The notes under the pieces: generated by a model | What the model was told of the DNA's origin: nothing | The model's input: the letters and a program-made list of their open reading frames with translations, nothing else | Databases searched by the model: none | In this document: piece after piece, positions 4,001 to 53,497 of the stretch | Layout: each line of letters opens with the position of its first letter | How positions within the stretch are numbered: position 1 is the stretch's first letter | Virus record (IMG/VR): IMGVR_UViG_3300032295_001119 | Span: 1 to 53,497 of that record | Reading direction: 5' to 3' (one strand) | Length of the DNA: 53,497 nucleotides | Source of the DNA: a virus | Taxonomy: Duplodnaviria; Caudoviricetes | Position numbers and translations under genes: made by a program

Positions 4001-4734
4001 AGAGTATTTATCAGGTGGTCATGTATCAATTCAGCAAATAATTCATGTGAATCTACACCCGGATGTCCTAAATCTCTAGCTTTGTCTATGACAGGACCGA
4101 TTATAGTATTATCATCAAATGGTAATACTTTATGAATTCCAAAATATACAATAGGGACTTTAATCATTGCTTGAACTGTTAGGTGAGCTAACATTTTTTT
4201 AGCTTCAAGAAAGTTTAAGTCTAAACCTAAATTGATGAAATCACTGTAATCTTTATTGTTTTCCCATAAACCTCGAGGATGCAAATTATCTGATGTTGTC
4301 CCTGTTAGTGTTCTAGTTATATCGGGCCATTGAATTATAACTGCTTTAGGCAATTTAGGAACTACAGAAAACCATATCGTTAAGTTATGTAACACTACAT
4401 CTATACCAGTAGCTCCTAAACCTAGATTGTAGTAATCACAATTTAATTTTTCTGCCAATACATGTGGATATATTTTATCTTCTTCTAATCCTATACCCTC
4501 AGTATGACTACACCCAGTACACAATATGTAATTGTCTAGATTTATTTCTTCTATTTCTTTAGAACGATGCCCTAGAGAGTTTAATTTATAAAAAATTTTA
4601 GAAGTTCTATATCTCCAATCCAATGGCATGTCAGGCAATCTTTTTGTCAAATTTTCATAATTATCACCCGAAGACCATTCACTAACCGTGTTAGGATGAT
4701 GATTACCTATAAAACCGTGTTTGTGAAATCTCAT
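3961..4734 (-). CDS. SGNH/GDSL-like protein
   Basis: GCSHTEG and DLGHPG motifs. Confidence 0.5.
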
Positions 4735-4946
4735 TTTCTGCGAACAATTCTACCTTTACTCAGGTCGTAGGGGCTGAACTCTATTTCTACTTTGTCGCCG
4801 AGTAGAATTTTAATGTCATGCTTACGCATTTTACCTGAGATATAACCTGTTACAGTTTGTCCTGCATCCAGTGTCACTCTAAAGACGGCATTAGGTAATA
4901 CATCAATTACCTTACCGTCCATTCTAATACCTTCTTCTTTAGCCAT
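4731..4946 (-). CDS. infA: Translation initiation factor IF-1
   Basis: MAKEEGI..GKV..LPNA.F.V.L...ISGKMR...[17 protein letters not shown]. Confidence 0.95.
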
Positions 4947-34696: not shown

Positions 34697-36112
34697 TTAG
34701 CAGTTGTAACGATAGTTCATGATGGTCTTCATCATCATACCTTCTGGAGTGAACTCAGAAGGATCTGCACCAAGCAGACTTGCCATGATGCTTGGGCTAA
34801 AGCCAGAGACTAAAGCCGCACCAGACTTGTCACTCTTGACCGGAACGTTATCACTTGCGTTTAAGTTCCAGAAGACCACACTAGGCACTTCGTAACCTGC
34901 ATCACGGAACTTACGTTCAATCATCTGCATAGCAGAATCATCGTGATTCACACATGCATTGAATTGCATGTCTGAAAGGATCAACACCATCTTAGGCATG
35001 TCAGATTGAGGAACGTTGTTCTTCACTGCCACAGCCAAGACCTTGTCAAAAGCCTTGTGCAAGTTAGTATCCATAGCCCACTTAGAGGTAATCATTTGAT
35101 TAACCTTCTGAACGATATCACCCTTAAGGGTCAACAGTTCAGGTGTGCCACTGAAAGTCAAGAATGTGTCCTTGAACGCACCCTTGTTCTTGTCAGCTAG
35201 ATACAGACCTAGCGAGACAGCAACATCCAAGCAACTAACGCTTGTGTTCTTACCTGCTGGGCAAGTCATAGAACCACTAACGTCTACCATTGGTAGAATG
35301 TTTGCGTCATTCATATAGTTAGGAAGAGCATCCCACTGTGCAGTCAAGTGATCCAACTCAGTCTTACCTAGAGTTGCACGACCGTACGGGTTGATGATGT
35401 CCTTCAAAACTTCGTGAGGGAACACTGCCGAAGCATTGACCTTAACGGTCTTGTCACCACTCACTAGCTTCTGCACGTATTCAGCGAATGTTACAGAATG
35501 ACGGTTGAACGCCTTCTTGTAGATTCGTGCTGCCTGTGAAGGCACATGCGAGAAGTTGATGTTGTCCCAATCTTGGGCACACATCTGTGTTTCAACTACC
35601 TTAGTAAGAGCAACAAGGCTCTTACGGTATTGCTTCGGAGTCATACCGAAGAACTCGCGGATTTCACGTGCGACTTCACCCTTACGAGGAGTCCACTTTG
35701 CCGCAAGGCCATTCTTTGCACGAAGGGCATCGCCCAACATTGTGTAAGCCTTAGCCTTCAAGTCCGGAGTCTTGAACACTAGCAAGTCGTCATAACGACC
35801 TACTTCTGGCACCTTTGTCATCAAACGTGCCGCCGATTCAGGATCGGTCTTTTCCAAGTGAGTCAAAATGTCACGGAACAATTGACGTTCACCTGCACCA
35901 CCGCGGGCATCACGTGCCCACAATGCGATACGTAGTGCTAGATCCTTATTTTGAACCATAGCCGCAGTAAACTTAGGAACGATGTCCTTGCCACGGCTAG
36001 CACCGATGTTGTAGAACAAGTCCACCAATGCGTTAGCAGTGGACTTACGAGCCTTCATACCGTTTTCAGTACGAGCTTCTTGATTTGCGATTGCGTTTAC
36101 AAATGCGTTCAT
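34697..36112 (-). CDS. DUF2828-type helical + vWA protein (Ro60/TROVE-like architecture)
   Basis: RD.RGG.GER, G..DDL, AKW.PR, MIDAS DVSGSM, SDMQF, VFWNL, SGFS. Confidence 0.8.
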   Translation of the reverse strand: MNAFVNAIANQEARTENGMKARKSTANALVDLFYNIGASRGKDIVPKFTAAMVQNKDLALRIALWARDARGGAGERQLFRDILTHLEKTDPESAARLMTKVPEVGRYDDLLVFKTPDLKAKAYTMLGDALRAKNGLAAKWTPRKGEVAREIREFFGMTPKQYRKSLVALTKVVETQMCAQDWDNINFSHVPSQAARIYKKAFNRHSVTFAEYVQKLVSGDKTVKVNASAVFPHEVLKDIINPYGRATLGKTELDHLTAQWDALPNYMNDANILPMVDVSGSMTCPAGKNTSVSCLDVAVSLGLYLADKNKGAFKDTFLTFSGTPELLTLKGDIVQKVNQMITSKWAMDTNLHKAFDKVLAVAVKNNVPQSDMPKMVLILSDMQFNACVNHDDSAMQMIERKFRDAGYEVPSVVFWNLNASDNVPVKSDKSGAALVSGFSPSIMASLLGADPSEFTPEGMMMKTIMNYRYNC

Positions 36113-36128
36113 TTTCTTTTCCTTTGTC

Positions 36129-36185
36129 AGAATGTGTTTTATTTTCAGATATTGGTTGAAATTTAAAAGTTGCTGTTAACATTCT
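36129..36185 (-). ncRNA. ACAGCAA-family ncRNA A (57 nt)
   Basis: AGAATGT-TAACAGCAA...ACATTCT terminal helix. Confidence 0.6.
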
Positions 36186-36196
36186 ATGTCTCTAGC

Positions 36197-36452
36197 AGGA
36201 TGAGCGTAACTGGTGTTTTTATTTTCTGGTCAGCCTTTCCCCTGTATATCGGTTCAGTTACCTTGACCCTATCAACAATTCATGTTGACTATCTAGTAAT
36301 TGTGTCTGCTACTAGCAACATACAAAGTCTTTCCAATGTGTCGTCTATTCCTTCAATGTCTAGTTTCTTAGAACAGTATTTCTACTGTGTCCTGCAACCA
36401 TCTTCTATAGCAGTTAGTTCAGATTTAATGTTTAATTTGCTGTAATCATCCT
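36197..36452 (-). ncRNA. ACAGCAA-family ncRNA B (256 nt, structured)
   Basis: AGGATGA-TTACAGCAA...TCATCCT; internal hairpins incl. CAGTA-GAAA-TACTG. Confidence 0.7.
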
Positions 36453-36463
36453 AGAATACAAAC

Positions 36464-36629
36464 AGGTTAGTTGTTGACTGCTTTTATTAAACTCAGGCCA
36501 TCACTCTGAGCTTGTTAGTCTTGCTTCAATGAACACCTTCAACGCTACACAGTTTTACCTGCTTTGCTCCAATGATTCACCACAGTGTCTAACGATTCAT
36601 AGTATTATGAATATTGCTGTACCTAACCT
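36464..36629 (-). ncRNA. ACAGCAA-family ncRNA C (166 nt)
   Basis: AGGTTAG-GTACAGCAA...CTAACCT. Confidence 0.7.
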
Positions 36630-36649
36630 TTTAATCATTCAATACATGT

Positions 36650-36678
36650 ATTGTACATGTATTTTGAATTAATATCAA
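36650..36678 (-). promoter_or_regulatory. sigma70 promoter for ncRNA C-B-A + DUF2828 unit
   Basis: TTGATA-N17-TACAAT. Confidence 0.6.
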
Positions 36679-36911
36679 TACTCTTTGGGTATCTTCTTTG
36701 TTGCGATTCGTTTTAAGTAGTCTCTACCGACTAAACCTTTTTCGATTTCTTGTAGCGCGGTCACGGTTGGACCTGCTTTAGTAACGAGTTTTGGGTGATG
36801 GCCTCGTTTTAGTTCTCTGACTCTAGCTGATGCAATCAAAACTAAATCGAATCGATTGCCTACCATGCTAACGGCATCTTCGCTTGTATACCGGGCTCTG
36901 CTTTCTGTCAT
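36675..36911 (-). CDS. rpoZ: RNA polymerase omega subunit
   Basis: AR.T.ED....GNRFDLVL.AS.R.R.L......K....V.AL.EI..G. Confidence 0.88.
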   Translation of the reverse strand: MTESRARYTSEDAVSMVGNRFDLVLIASARVRELKRGHHPKLVTKAGPTVTALQEIEKGLVGRDYLKRIATKKIPKEY

Positions 36912-40566: not shown

Positions 40567-41853
40567 TTAGTATCTGTATGTTTCTGCTTTGTAAGGACCT
40601 TCTACTGAAACTCCTATGTACTTAGCTTGTTCATCAGTCAATGTCGTTAGTATAGCACCTATTTTATTTAAATGCAACCTTGCAACCTTCTCATCCAAGT
40701 GTTTTGGTAAAACGTACATTTGACCAACTTCATATTTTTGAGAATTTGTCCAAAGTTCAATCTGTGCAATTACTTGATTAGTAAAACTGTTGCTCATTAC
40801 AAAGCTTGGATGACCTGTAGCACAACCTAAGTTGACTAAACGACCTTTTGCAAGAATGATAATCTTGCGACCATTACTCAATTTTACATGATCTACTTGT
40901 GGTTTGATTTCTGTCCACTCACAATCGCTCAATCCTGCAATATCAATCTCACTATCAAAGTGACCGATGTTACAAACGATTGAATTTTCTTTCATCTGTA
41001 GCATATGGTTTACTTTGATAACATTAACGTTACCGGTAGCAGTAACGAAAATATCAGCTTCTCTACATGCTTGATCCATTGACACAACACGGAAGCCTTC
41101 CATTGCGGCTTGTAATGCACAGATAGGATCTGTCTCAGTGACCCAAACTTGGGCACTCAAAGCACGTAATGCTTGTGCAGAACCTTTACCAACATCACCG
41201 AAGCCACAAACAACTGCAACTTTACCTGCAATCATTACGTCAGTAGCACGTTTGATACTATCAACTAGACTTTCACGGCAACCATATAGGTTGTCAAATT
41301 TAGTCTTAGTGACTGAATCATTAACATTGATGGCACGTAACTTGAATTTACCTTGCTCAATTGCTTCTTTGATACGATGAATACCTGTAGTTGTTTCTTC
41401 ACTGACACCAGTGATTCCAGCTAACAACTCAGGCTCTTTTTCATGTACATACCATGTCAAATCATGACCATCGTCAAGTAACATATTAGGAGTCCAACCA
41501 TTTGGACCACGTACTGTTTGCTCAATGCACCACCAGTATTCATCTTCTGTTTCGCCTTTCCAAGCAAAGACAGGAATACCTAGATCGGCAATTGCCGCCG
41601 CGGCATGATCTTGTGTGCTGTAGATATTACAGCTAGACCAACGAACGTCGGCTCCTAAATCAACTAATGTTTTGATTAGAACCGCTGTTTGTATCGTCAT
41701 GTGCAAACTGCCTGCAATTCTTGCACCTTTGAGTGGCTTCTGTGACAAATATTCATCACGTATTGCCATCAAGCCGGGCATTTCACCTTCAGCAATTTCA
41801 ATCTCTTTGTGGCCCCATTGAGCCAGTGTAATATCTTTAATTTTATAGTCCAT
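40567..41853 (-). CDS. ahcY: S-adenosylhomocysteine hydrolase
   Basis: [46 protein letters not shown]. Confidence 0.97.
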
Positions 41854-41870
41854 GTGTGCTTTCTTGTAAG

Positions 41871-41944
41871 TGGAGCGGGGTAGGAGAATCGAACTCCTCG
41901 CATTAGCTTGGAAGGCTAAGGTATTACCACTATACGAACCCCGC
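41871..41944 (-). tRNA. tRNA-Gly(TCC)
   Basis: Cloverleaf, CCA. Confidence 0.92.
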
Positions 41945-41956
41945 ATAAATATACTT

Positions 41957-42121
41957 ATGCACACTTACGATGCTATCACAAAAACCGGATTGTATATCCA
42001 TCTTTCTATGATGGAAGAACAATCATTTTACATACTTGTTCAAGACCTTGACAATTTCACATTAACTATGAAATTCTTCAATGACCCGAACACTGCTAGA
42101 GAATTCATCAAATCATTATGA
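41957..42121 (+). CDS. Small protein
   Basis: TAAATA-N5-ATG. Confidence 0.5.
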
Positions 42122-44477: not shown

Positions 44478-44500
44478 ACGTTTATTTAGTTATATGTTAC

Positions 44501-44562
44501 AGGATGCATTTTTACGGTTTTGATTAGAAGTCAAATGTATAAATGTTTGCAGTTAGCATCCT
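44501..44562 (-). ncRNA. ACWGCAA-family ncRNA D carrying Arg(UCU) anticodon arm
   Basis: AGGATGC-TAACTGCAA...TTTGA-CTTCTAA-TCAAA...GCATCCT. Confidence 0.75.
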
Positions 44563-44567
44563 TGTTC

Positions 44568-46181: not shown

Positions 46182-46378
46182 TTTGTAAGTCGTTGCGTCC
46201 CTCATATCGCAACCATTTTCCCATGTAATTAAGCCGGCTGGGTCAAGATCCGTCACTTGGGCTTTGTCCAGTCGGCACACCATATGCCTGTAGTGAGGAC
46301 TCGAACCTCCAACCTTCTACTGTTTTGGTAGTTCGAACATACCTAGACAGCGTGACTCCACTTGCTGACACTTACAAA
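46182..46378 (-). ncRNA. Structured ncRNA with T-loop, CAGCAA-variant family member
   Basis: TTTGTAAGT-GTCAGCAA...ACTTACAAA helix; GAGG-TTCGAGT-CCTC T-arm. Confidence 0.6.
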
Positions 46379-46873: not shown

Positions 46874-46947
46874 TGGCATCCCGCGAGAGATTCGAACTCC
46901 CACCAAGGGTTTTGGAGACCCGTATGCTGCCGTTACACTAGCGAGAT
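46874..46947 (-). tRNA. tRNA-Trp(CCA)
   Basis: Cloverleaf; overlaps 3' end of upstream CDS. Confidence 0.88.
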
Positions 46948-47478
46948 ATTTAATTCTTTAAGTTTATTTATATAGTGTTCTTCACCTTGACTGACAGTTG
47001 AACGCCAATCAACTAATGAATCTTCATTGGCACCATCACTGACAAACTTATAACATAAAAATTCAGTATTGGTTTTCCTACATACCTTTGCAATAGCATA
47101 TGCTTCCATATCTACTACATCAGCAGGTATCAATAAATTACTATCTGTAACAAAGTTGTCACCTGTACTACAAGTTAGTCCATCACCATTATCAATGATG
47201 ATGGTATCTTCAAATGGTGTTTGACCTGGTTGACTGCCTAACTCACAACACATCATATCACGTTGAACAAATTTAGTCACTTGATGAAATCCTGACTTAA
47301 CAGTGACTCCACCTGCAGTGCCAAAGTTGATAACACGTTTAGGATTGTACTTAGCGATGAGTTCAGCCGCAGTCATTGCGGCATTGACTTTACCGACACC
47401 TGTATAGAATACATTCATGCTATATGACATATTAGGTGCTTCATCTTTCAAAGCAATCAATATCAAATCATTATACAT
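46933..47478 (-). CDS. MTA/SAH nucleosidase-like (PNP/UDP family)
   Basis: GVGKVNAA, NFGTAGG, TGD.F, DMEAYA, K.VSD. Confidence 0.85.
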   Translation of the reverse strand: MYNDLILIALKDEAPNMSYSMNVFYTGVGKVNAAMTAAELIAKYNPKRVINFGTAGGVTVKSGFHQVTKFVQRDMMCCELGSQPGQTPFEDTIIIDNGDGLTCSTGDNFVTDSNLLIPADVVDMEAYAIAKVCRKTNTEFLCYKFVSDGANEDSLVDWRSTVSQGEEHYINKLKELNISLV

Positions 47479-47493
47479 CAAATGTCCTATGTT

Positions 47494-49277: not shown

Positions 49278-50753
49278 TTATTTTTTTAATAAAGTGAATA
49301 ACTTTGTTTTGTATTCTTGAATAAATTTAGGTATCGCATGTGTTGATAACAGATCATACCTAAAATCTTTAAATGCAGTTTCTCTTACGTCATCCAATTT
49401 GTATCCATGATTCACTAGTTCAAACAAATCATGACCCGAAACTTTAAAATACGGCATGTCTCTAGATGAACTATTGCACTGCACTGCGATGCGACTAGCT
49501 ATAGCAGAATTTAAATGTTCATTTTTCCAGACATTATACCCTGATTCATTTTTCGTAACTGTATATCCATACTTTTCGTAATTGAGATCGATATCACTCA
49601 AAAAACTAATGTCTTGGTTGATGTAAAGGGCTCTTGTAACCCAACTGTGTAACGCTAGTTCTCCTCTAGCTAACTGAGTAGTTGTTTGAATTAAGCTAGA
49701 AACAGGTTCATCAGGTAATCCAATAATGAAGCTTCCGTGCATACTTATTTCTGGGTATGTTTTTCGTATTTTTGTTATAGTGGCTGTCTGCTTTTCTCTA
49801 TTATAGCCTTTACCTATTATTTTACCTGTCTTTTCGTTCATTGTCTCTATACCAAAATAGACACATCTGATTCCTATTTCATACATCGTATGAATCATTT
49901 CAGGACGAACACATATCAAATCTAATCTTGAATAGCACCAAAAGTATGGTTTAAAAGGTAACCTCTTTACCATGTCAGCAATAGTATTAAGTTTTTCTTC
50001 ACTGTCATTGAACGTATCGTCTACGATTATGTAGTGAGTGACTCCAAACTTTTCATAATTTTCTAACAACTCTTGATACAAGATATCAGATTCTTTTATG
50101 TAGTCTAGTTTGTTTTTTCCATTCAATGGGAACGAGCAAAACTTACATTTAAAAATACATCCTCTACCTATCTCTATGGGAAGAACTTTATGGTTAACTA
50201 CATCTGTCTCTTCCCAAATCATTTTATCTAAACTGAAATCATAACCAGATGCGGTTCTATCATCAATGATAGTAATTCCATATAAATTTTTCATTGCATT
50301 GTTTAAAGGATCACCTTTGGTTAAATGATTCAATAGATTTACAATGCTTATTTCACTGTATCCCAACACTACATAATTTATGTTTTTGTTGTCATACATA
50401 TTGGACGTTTTACTTCCACCAACTGCAAACTTTATGTTCTTATTTTTACTACGTATGTAGGATATCACTTCATCTTCAAATTCCTTACCTTGTGGCAAGA
50501 TAAAATTTGTTCGTGCGTATCCTACAGTTTTTAAAAAAGTAGTGCTGAATCCAAGCAACTTAGTTTGATCGGACACTGTTAAATCAATCAAGTCCTTAAT
50601 CTCATTAAGTGAAAAAGTTGATACGTGATTGACTACTAAAGCTTTGTACCCATTCTTTCGCAAAACACACGCAACCTTGAAGGCTCCCAGTGGGGCAGAA
50701 ATCTGAATAGTATCAGAATCATTGTTGTCTGTGAAAATTATAGCGTCATACAT
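49278..50753 (-). CDS. Radical SAM protein with B12-binding-like N-domain
   Basis: RGCIFKCKFC, DDTFND, GIET, FIIGLP.E. Confidence 0.85.
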   Translation of the reverse strand: MYDAIIFTDNNDSDTIQISAPLGAFKVACVLRKNGYKALVVNHVSTFSLNEIKDLIDLTVSDQTKLLGFSTTFLKTVGYARTNFILPQGKEFEDEVISYIRSKNKNIKFAVGGSKTSNMYDNKNINYVVLGYSEISIVNLLNHLTKGDPLNNAMKNLYGITIIDDRTASGYDFSLDKMIWEETDVVNHKVLPIEIGRGCIFKCKFCSFPLNGKNKLDYIKESDILYQELLENYEKFGVTHYIIVDDTFNDSEEKLNTIADMVKRLPFKPYFWCYSRLDLICVRPEMIHTMYEIGIRCVYFGIETMNEKTGKIIGKGYNREKQTATITKIRKTYPEISMHGSFIIGLPDEPVSSLIQTTTQLARGELALHSWVTRALYINQDISFLSDIDLNYEKYGYTVTKNESGYNVWKNEHLNSAIASRIAVQCNSSSRDMPYFKVSGHDLFELVNHGYKLDDVRETAFKDFRYDLLSTHAIPKFIQEYKTKLFTLLKK

Positions 50754-51928: not shown

Positions 51929-51949
51929 GTGAACTGTATAAATAAAACG

Positions 51950-52525
51950 ATGAATGAGTATTTTTCAAAAACCACACTACCCGCACCTGCTGTTGATTGG
52001 AAATCAATATGGCCAGAGATAGTATCTAATGATGATCCCATTGACATTGGTCCTAGGTTTCGTTTGATTGATCCTAGATCAGCAACACTTTCAAATTTGT
52101 GGCCTGAGGGAGATTTTGCCAGTCGATTAAAAAATGTAGGTCTTTATCCATACATTATTAGAATTTTTAGATGGGCTCCAAATAGAAGTTTTGCTTGGCA
52201 CATTGATGGGACAAACAAACCTAGATTCTGTGCATTAAATTGGATCCTAGATGGATTTGGTCAAATCCAATGGGATAGCAAATTTAAGTGGGACGAATCT
52301 ACCGGTACTAATGTAACCTTTAAAAATAAAATCGGAAACGATAACGATCCGTTTGAAATAGACTCAGATGGACATTCATGTTTAGTCAACACGTTAATCC
52401 CACATAGAGTTGTAAATTTCAACAGCGTTCACCGAGTCAGTATCAGTGTGTTAGTTAATGAAACCTTCAGTTACGCTGAAGTATATAATAGACTTGCATC
52501 AGTTGAACTGATACAATCATTATAG
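51950..52525 (+). CDS. Cupin/2OG-Fe(II)-like protein
   Basis: WHID...NT.IPH.V.N....R; TATAAATA upstream. Confidence 0.55.
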   Translation: MNEYFSKTTLPAPAVDWKSIWPEIVSNDDPIDIGPRFRLIDPRSATLSNLWPEGDFASRLKNVGLYPYIIRIFRWAPNRSFAWHIDGTNKPRFCALNWILDGFGQIQWDSKFKWDESTGTNVTFKNKIGNDNDPFEIDSDGHSCLVNTLIPHRVVNFNSVHRVSISVLVNETFSYAEVYNRLASVELIQSL

Positions 52526-52533
52526 AATAAAAC

Positions 52534-52644
52534 AGGATACCATTCTTGACGAATGCTCTACCAGATGAGCTAATTACGCATGAAGCGTGATACTGGAATC
52601 GAACCAGTTACCTATCGTTTGGATAGTTTTGCTGTTAGTATCCT
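52534..52644 (-). ncRNA. ACAGCAA-family ncRNA E: circularly permuted tRNA mimic (YrlA Y-RNA-like)
   Basis: AGGATAC-TAACAGCAA, then T-arm, loop-closed acceptor stem, D-arm, then GTATCCT. Confidence 0.85.
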
Positions 52645-52649
52645 AAAAC

Positions 52650-52725
52650 TGGTCTCCCCAGGAGGATTCGAACCCCCACCGCCTGACCCCAAATCAGGAA
52701 CGCTACCTGGTTACGCTATAGAGAG
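52650..52725 (-). tRNA. tRNA-Pro(TGG), second copy
   Basis: Cloverleaf, loop TTTGGGG. Confidence 0.88.
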
Positions 52726-53432: not shown

Positions 53433-53497
53433 TGGTGGAGATGCCGGGATTCGAACCGCGGACAAGAACTTTTACAGAGTTAGAGCTATAGAGTTGC
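53433..53497 (-). ncRNA. Truncated tRNA-like RNA (GTA anticodon arm, T-arm, CCA; no normal D-arm visible)
   Basis: GCAACTC...AACT-CTGTAAA-AGTT...GGTTCGAATCC-CGGCATCTCCACCA; cut by window end. Confidence 0.55.

Follow-up and report, generated by a model that had tools for sequence, protein, structure and literature searches.

The window analysed here is the whole of a 53.5-kb viral fragment (CheckV completeness estimate, 11%), in which the 31 tRNA genes called by ARAGORN all fall on the minus strand, between 36.9 and 53.4 kb. The same strand encodes, at 34697–36112, a protein of 471 residues with DUF2828 and DUF7788 domains that falls in PHROG 850 ('RNA-binding protein'). At 52534–52644 on the minus strand lies a candidate small RNA gene of approximately 113 nt, which takes the form of a rearranged tRNA mounted on a stalk. 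A tRNA-Pro(UGG) gene with an encoded CCA (52650–52725, minus strand) ends 5 nt upstream of the closing helix of this element, and two terminator-like hairpins, identified by a consensus scan only, follow just downstream of it (52465–52516, minus strand). Judging from this arrangement, the tRNA-Pro is likely to be a co-transcribed neighbour of the element, and the hairpins may form the end of a transcript that contains both.

Read 5′ to 3′ on the minus strand, the element opens with AGGATAC (52638–52644), which pairs over 7 bp with GTATCCT (52534–52540) near its other end, where GTTT follows. Two nucleotides past the 5′ arm of this closing helix stands the handle motif ACAGCAA (52629–52635), which shares the core CAGCAA with the family described below. 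A local hairpin, CTATC-CAAAC-GATAG (52612–52626), occupies the position of the V arm in YrlA, a class of bacterial Y RNA. The T-arm comes next (52592–52608), with the stem strands ACTGG and CCAGT enclosing the loop TTCGATT, and leads directly into an acceptor-like stem of seven positions (52573–52591; arms 52585–52591 and 52573–52579) that is closed by the loop TTCAT. In the window copy, this stem forms six of its seven pairs, with one C·A mismatch, and has neither a free end nor a CCA sequence. The dinucleotide TA, which corresponds to tRNA positions 8 and 9, links the acceptor-like stem to a D-arm made up of GCTC, the loop ATCTGGTA and GAGC (52555–52572 with the linker; the arm itself spans 52570–52555). 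The D-loop contains GG, and a 13-base linker joins the D-arm back to the closing helix. The strand ACGA (3′-side, 52615–52618) pairs with TCGT (5′-side, 52549–52552) to form an anticodon-like stem. The sequence confirms this minus-strand reading as it was set out in a first-pass annotation. The 5-bp ACGAT/TTCGT stem proposed there is also present, but with four pairs only, and it competes with the local hairpin: the minimum-free-energy fold of the element (−31.5 kcal/mol, z −3.9; none of 200 shuffles equally stable) prefers the hairpin at 52626–52612 over the 4-bp anticodon-like stem. Compensatory variants of the hairpin, read from the alignment of close relatives, include CTAAC/GTTAG, ACATC/GATGT and ACAAC/GTTGT. 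By eye, the local hairpin and the anticodon-like stem each show compensatory changes among these close relatives, and the RNA may conceivably switch between the two conformations.

The Rfam model of YrlA aligns to the window copy across its full 114 positions, with an E-value of 1.7e-4 for a search of 401 bases and 0.023 for a search of the whole window. The first-pass annotation had assigned the element to the YrlA class and named this search as a check. The order of modules and the end-to-end alignment uphold the assignment; the score does not, being 29.4 bits against a cut-off of 69 bits, nor does the sequence, which has no GNCGAAN0-1G motif. As the same model also gives 12–19 bits on real tandem-tRNA junctions in the window, the YrlA score alone settles nothing. 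Thirteen family members across 16 loci tested scored 32.9–45.9 bits with this model. Standard tRNA finders miss the element, as had been anticipated, with no call from ARAGORN and no match to the Rfam tRNA model at E-values up to 10. Comparison of the element with phage records by blastn returned short tRNA-arm matches only, among them tRNA-Val|tRNA-Gly junctions of Rhizobium phages, and no full-length homologue.

Relatives were found through a 122-residue ORF upstream of the element, which identified 13 syntenic viral contigs. The element is retained in six of the 13, where its T stem, acceptor stem and hairpin show compensatory changes and where it comes after different tRNAs. A degenerate pattern consisting of ACAGCAA, the T-loop and the start of the D-arm matched at least 120 stretches of IMG/VR, with 112 distinct matches listed; among the matches listed, homologues with compensatory changes occur in approximately 100 other viral contigs. 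As the pattern fixes parts of the T- and D-arms, the conservation of those bases is no evidence. It demands neither the closing helix nor closure of the acceptor-like stem, so both could be tested on the 112 listed matches. An exact closing helix of at least 6 nt was found in 90 of the 112 matches listed, against a shuffle mean of 7.0 (maximum 14), and one of at least 7 nt in 78 of the 112, against 1.65. Similarly, the acceptor-like stem was closed, with at least six of seven pairs, in 95 of the 112 matches listed, against a shuffle mean of 2.2 (maximum 5); the family sequences are mutually related, and shuffle controls such as these therefore overstate significance. The arrangement described at the outset, with the T-arm 5′ of the D-arm and the acceptor stem closed by a loop, holds both for the window copy and family-wide.

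A sequence-only MAFFT alignment of 74 members had 92.9% of its paired cells filled by complementary bases, compared with 63.6% in shuffles and 33–42% when the partners were slid. All seven pairs of the closing helix covary in this alignment; its 94.6% pairing is partly a product of selection, since the 74 seeds were picked for having the helix, and the counts from the 112 matches serve as the unselected control. The acceptor-like stem is 97.5% paired and likewise covaries at seven of seven pairs, and the T stem is 99.7% paired, with covariation at three of its five pairs. The anticodon-like stem is weaker overall than the other helices (71% paired), yet all five of its pairs covary and the innermost is 97% paired. 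The D stem does not vary among the 74 sequences. An alignment of 134 distinct sequences gave the same picture and added covariation in the D stem, although this alignment was made with the model and leans towards it, and its low end includes some tandem tRNAs. The alignments also bear out that an anticodon stem opening into the terminal helix takes the place of the anticodon loop.

The Levitt pair between position 15 of the D-loop and position 48, with which the variable loop ends, provides a further sign of tRNA-like tertiary architecture. These positions are complementary in 60 of the 74 sequences, compared with 28 in shuffles, and none of 10000 shuffles reached so high a count. The states G-C (31), A-T (21) and T-A (8) are all represented, the window copy being T15-A48. 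An anticodon-like hairpin, with U33 and a purine at 37 in a 7-nt loop, stands immediately 5′ of the anticodon-like stem in 39 of 111 distinct members (7.5 in shuffles) and is absent from the window copy. On these comparative grounds, the element is confirmed as a real structured unit, beyond what chance would produce.

A covariance model, R1, was built from the 74-sequence alignment. It gives 103.3 bits (E 5e-20) to the window copy and 33.3 bits to the strongest of the window's tandem-tRNA junctions, the former value being high partly by construction, as the window copy was one of the seeds. The degenerate pattern also matched at least 80 loci in bacterial genome contigs, each taken as an 8-kb stretch, and in the 80 loci listed R1 made 87 matches with an E-value of 1e-6 or better. 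In most of the paralogous copies that R1 found independently of the pattern, the 5′ arm of the closing helix is followed by NCAGCAA (ACAGCAA, GTCAGCAA, TGCAGCAA and TTCAGCAA), which defines CAGCAA as the core of the family handle. The 3′ strand of the handle loop is A-rich, and the helix usually begins with AG and finishes with CT.

Four more handle RNAs are found in the window, all of them without the tRNA-like module. Three, at approximately 36464–36633, 36196–36456 and 36125–36189 on the minus strand, have the ACAGCAA handle and sit in the gap of 560 bases immediately upstream of the DUF2828 gene. The sharing of this handle between the element and these three RNAs, which had been noted at first reading, is thus corroborated, and R1 matches them in part, at 12.2, 15.0 and 28.1 bits. 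The fourth, at 44497–44566, combines ACTGCAA with an anticodon-like hairpin. A scan of the whole window for helices around CAGCAA, with spans of up to 330 nt, gave 17 candidates, helices of the three RNAs upstream of the gene among them, against 7.9 in shuffles, which makes it too noisy to rely on; the five handle RNAs trusted in the window are those that were also seen by eye or matched by R1.

Pfam identifies DUF7788 (E 1e-49) and DUF2828 (E 3e-24) in the 471-residue protein and nothing else; the protein encoded at 34697–36112 has no match to the Pfam TROVE family (PF05731). As searches with phmmer against PDB sequences and with NCBIfam also gave no match for it, the link to Ro60 needed a predicted fold. 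The protein-family profile reaches phage and Xenopus Ro60 only marginally (E 0.037–0.41). An AlphaFold2 model was obtained with 31 homologues (pLDDT 81, pTM 0.74), and a Foldseek comparison with the PDB placed Ro60 structures in all of the top 13 positions, with full-length alignments and TM scores of 0.48–0.60. The best match was 9kop, the Ro60 of Thermus phage phiLo (E 4.9e-10, TM 0.60), and the others included Xenopus Ro60, Deinococcus Rsr and human Ro60. The MIDAS motif DxSxS is invariant in the 31 homologues. The model thus folds like Ro60, as a HEAT-repeat ring followed by a vWA/MIDAS domain, and the DUF2828/DUF7788 protein is proposed, by analogy with Ro60 and its Y RNAs, as the partner of the element. 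An AAA_33 P-loop protein is encoded downstream of the DUF2828 gene. Pfam searches of 17 further neighbouring ORFs gave neither an RNA ligase nor any other clear enzyme of RNA repair.

The element and the DUF2828 gene lie on the same strand, 16.4 kb apart in the window. Evidence that the two belong together comes from their co-occurrence in a pattern scan that carried no protein information. Among the matches listed, 46 viral records have the pattern, of which 37 encode a DUF2828 homologue, as do 16 of the 19 whose completeness is 90% or more; by comparison, the DUF2828/DUF7788 family occurs in 706 phage records out of 50,697. The nine of 46 listed records without a DUF2828 match are mostly fragments. 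According to a comparison of coordinates by hand, 16 of the 35 listed records that have both keep the nearest RNA and the gene on one strand and no more than about 1.3 kb apart; in the remainder the distance is 4–200 kb, several records having 15–200 kb. Correspondingly, 52 of the 80 bacterial loci listed carry a DUF2828/DUF7788 gene within the 8-kb stretch. The first-pass annotation regarded the element as the strongest tie between these RNAs and Ro60 biology; the predicted fold of the protein and the proximity of the RNA family to its gene in viral and bacterial contigs support such a tie, with the caveat that the window copy itself is not within 4 kb of the gene.

Three of the near-complete viral records listed have no DUF2828 match, and in two of these a TROVE Ro60 gene adjoins the RNAs. 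The other RNA copies in the same two records have no CAGCAA, and the single ACAGCAA found in each is therefore probably a by-product of the search pattern.

Among ten named phages sampled, handle RNAs flank the DUF2828 gene in nine, mostly without annotation. In Enterococcus phage EFGrKN, an unannotated gap just upstream of the gene contains one handle-only RNA along with two copies of the tRNA-like kind, which score 104 and 81 bits. In Mycobacterium phage Loadrie, a 70.5-bit copy sits between two handle-only RNAs just downstream of a gene annotated as 'Ro-like RNA binding protein'. Salmonella phage FelixO1 has a 48-bit copy with ACAGCAA in a tRNA array 1 kb downstream of the gene, and Synechococcus phage BUCT-ZZ01 and Cronobacter phage S13 have copies of 39–51 bits near theirs. 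At the gene, handle-only RNAs number two or three in each of Listeria phage P100, Staphylococcus phage S-CoN_Ph6, Bacillus phage Izhevsk and Campylobacter phage CP81. Vibrio phage KVP40 encodes the protein but has no clear handle RNA at its DUF2828 gene, the only match being a weak one (44.8 bits, without CAGCAA) at a distance of 11 kb. From these sequence relationships, the element is a member of a large unannotated RNA family that lies beside the gene for a predicted Ro60-like protein in many phages and bacteria.

The closest known counterpart to this architecture is YrlA. Two studies describe in YrlA the same order of modules, a closed acceptor stem, no anticodon loop, conserved elbow nucleotides and a covarying Levitt pair (PMC4201824; 10.1101/312249). 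In their account, YrlA shares its strand with a TROVE Ro60 gene no more than 4 kb away and has GNCGAAN0-1G near the 5′ end of the RNA (PMC4201824; 10.1101/312249). Chen et al. reported YrlA in 254 bacteria and 22 phages in 2014, a survey that, in its accessible text, covers TROVE-annotated genomes only (PMC4201824). The family described here resembles YrlA (RF02553) from end to end, with a terminal stem, an optional V hairpin, a T-arm, a closed acceptor-like stem, UA, a D-arm and an anticodon-like stem built from the flanks. Conserved T- and D-loop nucleotides and the covarying Levitt pair are common to both, and the window copy likewise has no CCA end and no anticodon loop. Genes for both kinds of RNA share the strand of a gene for a protein of Ro60 fold (predicted in the present case) and often lie next to it, with several paralogous RNAs per locus.

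The family handle is CAGCAA after the helix, whereas YrlA has GNCGAAN0-1G, and GNCGAA, the presumed Ro60 contact in YrlA, is absent from the 5′ strand of the window copy. The protein beside the family is DUF2828/DUF7788, whereas that of YrlA is a Pfam TROVE protein, and the family scores 29–46 bits against a gathering threshold of 69 bits in Rfam. The acceptor-like stem has a constant length of 7 bp in the family and measures 6 bp in Salmonella YrlA (10.1101/312249). A third of the family members add an anticodon-like hairpin, and the family sits in phage tRNA arrays. The window copy has the pair T15-A48, whereas the variable loop of YrlA usually ends in a pyrimidine. At 16.4 kb from a DUF2828/DUF7788 gene, this copy also lies outside the distance of 4 kb from a TROVE gene that is used to recognise YrlA, although it shares the strand. 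As the Rfam score, the motif and the distance of this copy all fall outside the YrlA definition, and the partner is not TROVE by Pfam, the element is filed outside RF02553 and is best read as a putative variant of the Y RNA/YrlA kind with a different handle.

Phage phiLo offers a second comparison. Its Ro60 forms a ternary complex with the PNPase of the host, its RNAs are named Yrl1 and Yrl2, and structures have been deposited as PDB 9kop and 9l5y (PMC12135203). Like the window, phiLo encodes a Ro60 ring (here a predicted one) with small RNAs beside its gene, and no PDB structure matches the window protein better than 9kop. In contrast to the family described here, Yrl1 and Yrl2 were chosen by a CGAA motif and are Y RNAs of the stem-bulge-stem type, and the accessible text describes no tRNA-like module for them (PMC12135203). 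The phiLo protein is annotated as TROVE, and its profile similarity to the family of the window protein is marginal (E 0.037).

With canonical tRNAs, the element shares the T-loop, the D-loop, U8-A9, an acceptor helix of 7 bp and the 15–48 pair; it differs from them in being permuted, in having the acceptor end closed by a loop and no anticodon arm, and in going uncalled by tRNA finders. Permuted tRNA genes occur in red and green algae, where the 3′ half lies upstream of the 5′ half, as in the element. The algal transcripts pass through a circular intermediate to become normal tRNAs with an anticodon. In the element, the break instead falls within the anticodon stem, from which the chain continues into a conserved handle that is linked to a protein gene. 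A full-text search of literature outside subscription journals and outside the phage list of Chen 2014 (Table S2) found no paper describing a CAGCAA-handle RNA family.

It is proposed, with good though incomplete confidence, that the element is a non-coding RNA gene of approximately 113 nt with the architecture of YrlA, in which a CAGCAA handle carries a circularly permuted tRNA mimic, and that it acts by a Y-RNA mechanism on behalf of a Ro60-like protein. The RNA would be co-transcribed with the phage tRNA array and freed by tRNA-processing enzymes; that it is probably cut from a tRNA transcript is suggested by the 5-base gap after the CCA of tRNA-Pro and by the terminator-like hairpins on its 3′ side. 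The handle would be bound by the Ro60-like ring protein (34697–36112), in the way that Ro60 binds Y RNA. The tRNA-shaped module would then serve as the effector end, recognised by a tRNA-binding enzyme or nuclease that is thereby tethered to the ring protein. In the systems studied, PNPase is the partner that Y RNA tethers to Ro60 (PMC12135203).

The window is a dense array of 31 tRNAs, and the element might be the functionless, decayed junction of two adjacent tRNA genes, the first of which has left its T-arm and 3′ acceptor half, and the next its 5′ acceptor half together with its D-arm. Tandem tRNAs do resemble it, in that real ones match the YrlA model at 12–19 bits and R1 at 33 bits or less, and the element has blastn matches at the tRNA-Val|tRNA-Gly junctions of Rhizobium phages. 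Moreover, a published model derives YrlA itself from a dimeric tRNA (10.1101/312249). In the family, however, the two acceptor halves pair with one another, covary at seven of seven pairs and close the stem in 95 of the 112 matches listed, against 2.2 in shuffles. A closing helix with CAGCAA surrounds the unit in 90 of the 112 matches listed, the element scores 103 bits with R1 against 33 or less for true junctions, and it is kept with compensatory changes both in relatives and in distant phages. The first-pass annotation had itself named decayed tRNA halves as the finding that would overturn its reading, and the covariation of both helices in relatives contradicts it. The helix counts, the covariation, the Levitt pair and the R1 scores together exclude the decay of two adjacent tRNAs, to which a negligible probability is assigned.

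The element could alternatively be the precursor of a permuted tRNA that works independently of Ro60: RNase P would cut 5′ of the acceptor-like stem, the loop would be trimmed and CCA added, leaving a nicked and possibly chargeable tRNA-like molecule. The 7-bp length of the acceptor-like stem, here and family-wide, agrees with such a fate, as does the finding that a 7-bp length determines cleavage by RNase P and the addition of CCA for the YrlA of M. smegmatis in vivo (PMC4201824), and a hairpin whose 7-nt loop is anticodon-like persists in 39 of 111 distinct members (7.5 in shuffles). However, the window copy has no anticodon-like loop, a tRNA precursor leaves the handle and the linkage to a protein gene unexplained, and handle-only RNAs without a tRNA module are common beside that gene. 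Cleavage is in any case compatible with a Y RNA role, as the RNA of M. smegmatis remains bound to Rsr; this precursor reading is considered improbable. A similarly low probability is given to the idea that the element is a cis-acting structure for processing or termination of the tRNA operon, such as a nuclease entry site that recruits RNase P or Z, with no role or partner in trans. Its start 5 nt past the encoded CCA of tRNA-Pro, the two terminator-like hairpins downstream of it and the different tRNAs that precede it in relatives would all suit a cis-acting structure. However, phages of Listeria, Staphylococcus, Bacillus and Campylobacter carry the handle away from tRNAs, in tandem sets adjoining their DUF2828 genes; the linkage to this gene is far over the baseline, and the family adjoins TROVE Ro60 genes as well.

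On the Y-RNA reading, the family offers candidate RNA partners for a protein already tied to a phage phenotype. In a knockout screen of phage Bas63, the Ro60-like gp130 was found to counter the ppl defence, and in the accessible text the authors only guessed that some of the annotated tRNAs are Y RNAs (PMC11482910). The result with gp130 suggests a part in the conflict between phage and host, and the protein tied to ppl escape in Bas63 (PMC11482910) is the one for which the handle RNAs would be candidate partners. A broader and more speculative suggestion, held at well under even probability, is that a second family of Ro60-like proteins (DUF2828/DUF7788), found mostly in phages, has its cognate Y RNAs in the CAGCAA-handle RNAs, and that the tRNA-shaped members act as tRNA decoys or adaptors through which the ring protein intercepts host defence nucleases that target tRNA, or triages and repairs the tRNAs of the phage. 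If this were true, the tRNA arrays of large phages would bring along a ribonucleoprotein of their own for quality control or counter-defence.

Y RNAs with a tRNA-like module were previously known only beside Ro60 genes annotated as TROVE. The same design with a different handle is now found beside DUF2828/DUF7788 genes, and carriers of this protein family include widely used phages, among them FelixO1, Listeria P100 and Enterococcus, Staphylococcus and mycobacterial phages. The family also exposes a systematic gap in annotation: the FelixO1 copy, for example, is conserved in 246 records, where it is mostly unannotated or lies under doubtful hypothetical ORFs.

The gap between the Rpb6/omega-like ORF and the DUF2828 gene in the window, the latter encoding the Ro60-like protein proposed as partner of the handle RNAs, is filled by three tandem minus-strand RNAs (36125–36633). 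Each carries the ACAGCAA handle, comprising a closing helix and an internal loop, without the tRNA-like module. The three are closed by the helices GGTTAG/CTAACC, AGGATGA/TCATCCT and AGAATGT/ACATTCT, and the middle RNA is approximately 260 nt in length. Immediately upstream, the 78-aa minus-strand ORF (36675–36911) matches RNA polymerase Rpb6/omega (PF01192, E = 5e-12).

Tandem tRNA-like copies, three per locus, were detected with R1, the covariance model of the tRNA-like handle RNA family, at L170 3844–4321 and L226 701–1212. Both loci lie in bacterial metagenome-assembled contigs (Oscillospiraceae and Thermoguttaceae), and in each the triplet is immediately upstream of a DUF2828-like gene.

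In Cronobacter phage S13 (NC_028773.1), RefSeq annotates a 121-nt 'tRNA-Ser' and a 113-nt 'tRNA-OTHER' at 4396–4638, immediately downstream of an 'RNA-binding protein' gene. R1 matches overlap these odd tRNAs (4443–4569, 45.7 bits; 4650–4792, 38.8 bits), and some members of the handle RNA family may therefore be mis-annotated as tRNAs. In Salmonella phage FelixO1, 'ORF94' overlaps the tRNA-like handle RNA (AF320576.1, 24576–24708) in antisense orientation; the corresponding site of other Felix-like phages is without annotation or lies beneath hypothetical proteins.

Within the tRNA array of the window, a further handle RNA (44497–44566, minus strand; R1 26.8 bits) lies straight after a tRNA-Ser. 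It has the variant motif ACTGCAA and the helix AGGATGC/GCATCCT, and encloses a hairpin with a 7-base anticodon-like loop. A noisy helix scan of the window also returned a 9-bp helix around GTCAGCAA (46182–46378, minus strand). It lies between tRNA-Leu and tRNA-Asp, has a span of 197 nt, overlaps a 100-aa ORF and may represent an additional handle RNA.

Scattered among the tRNAs of the array are minus-strand genes for an S-adenosylhomocysteine hydrolase (40567–41964), a PNP_UDP_1 phosphorylase-family protein (46933–47481) and a radical SAM protein (49278–50753), with HNH and GIY-YIG endonuclease ORFs close to them. The approximately 600 bases at 51929–52533, between the YrlA-like, tRNA-shaped element (52534–52644, minus strand) and tRNA-Val, contain no minus-strand ORF longer than 53 aa. 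All surrounding genes are on the minus strand, and the plus strand of this stretch holds a 198-aa ORF, for which a Pfam search gave no match. At the end of the window, which truncates it, lies a weak minus-strand match to the tmRNA 3′ end (53433–53497; 13.1 bits, E = 0.31); this may be a chance match or a tRNA-like 3′ domain.
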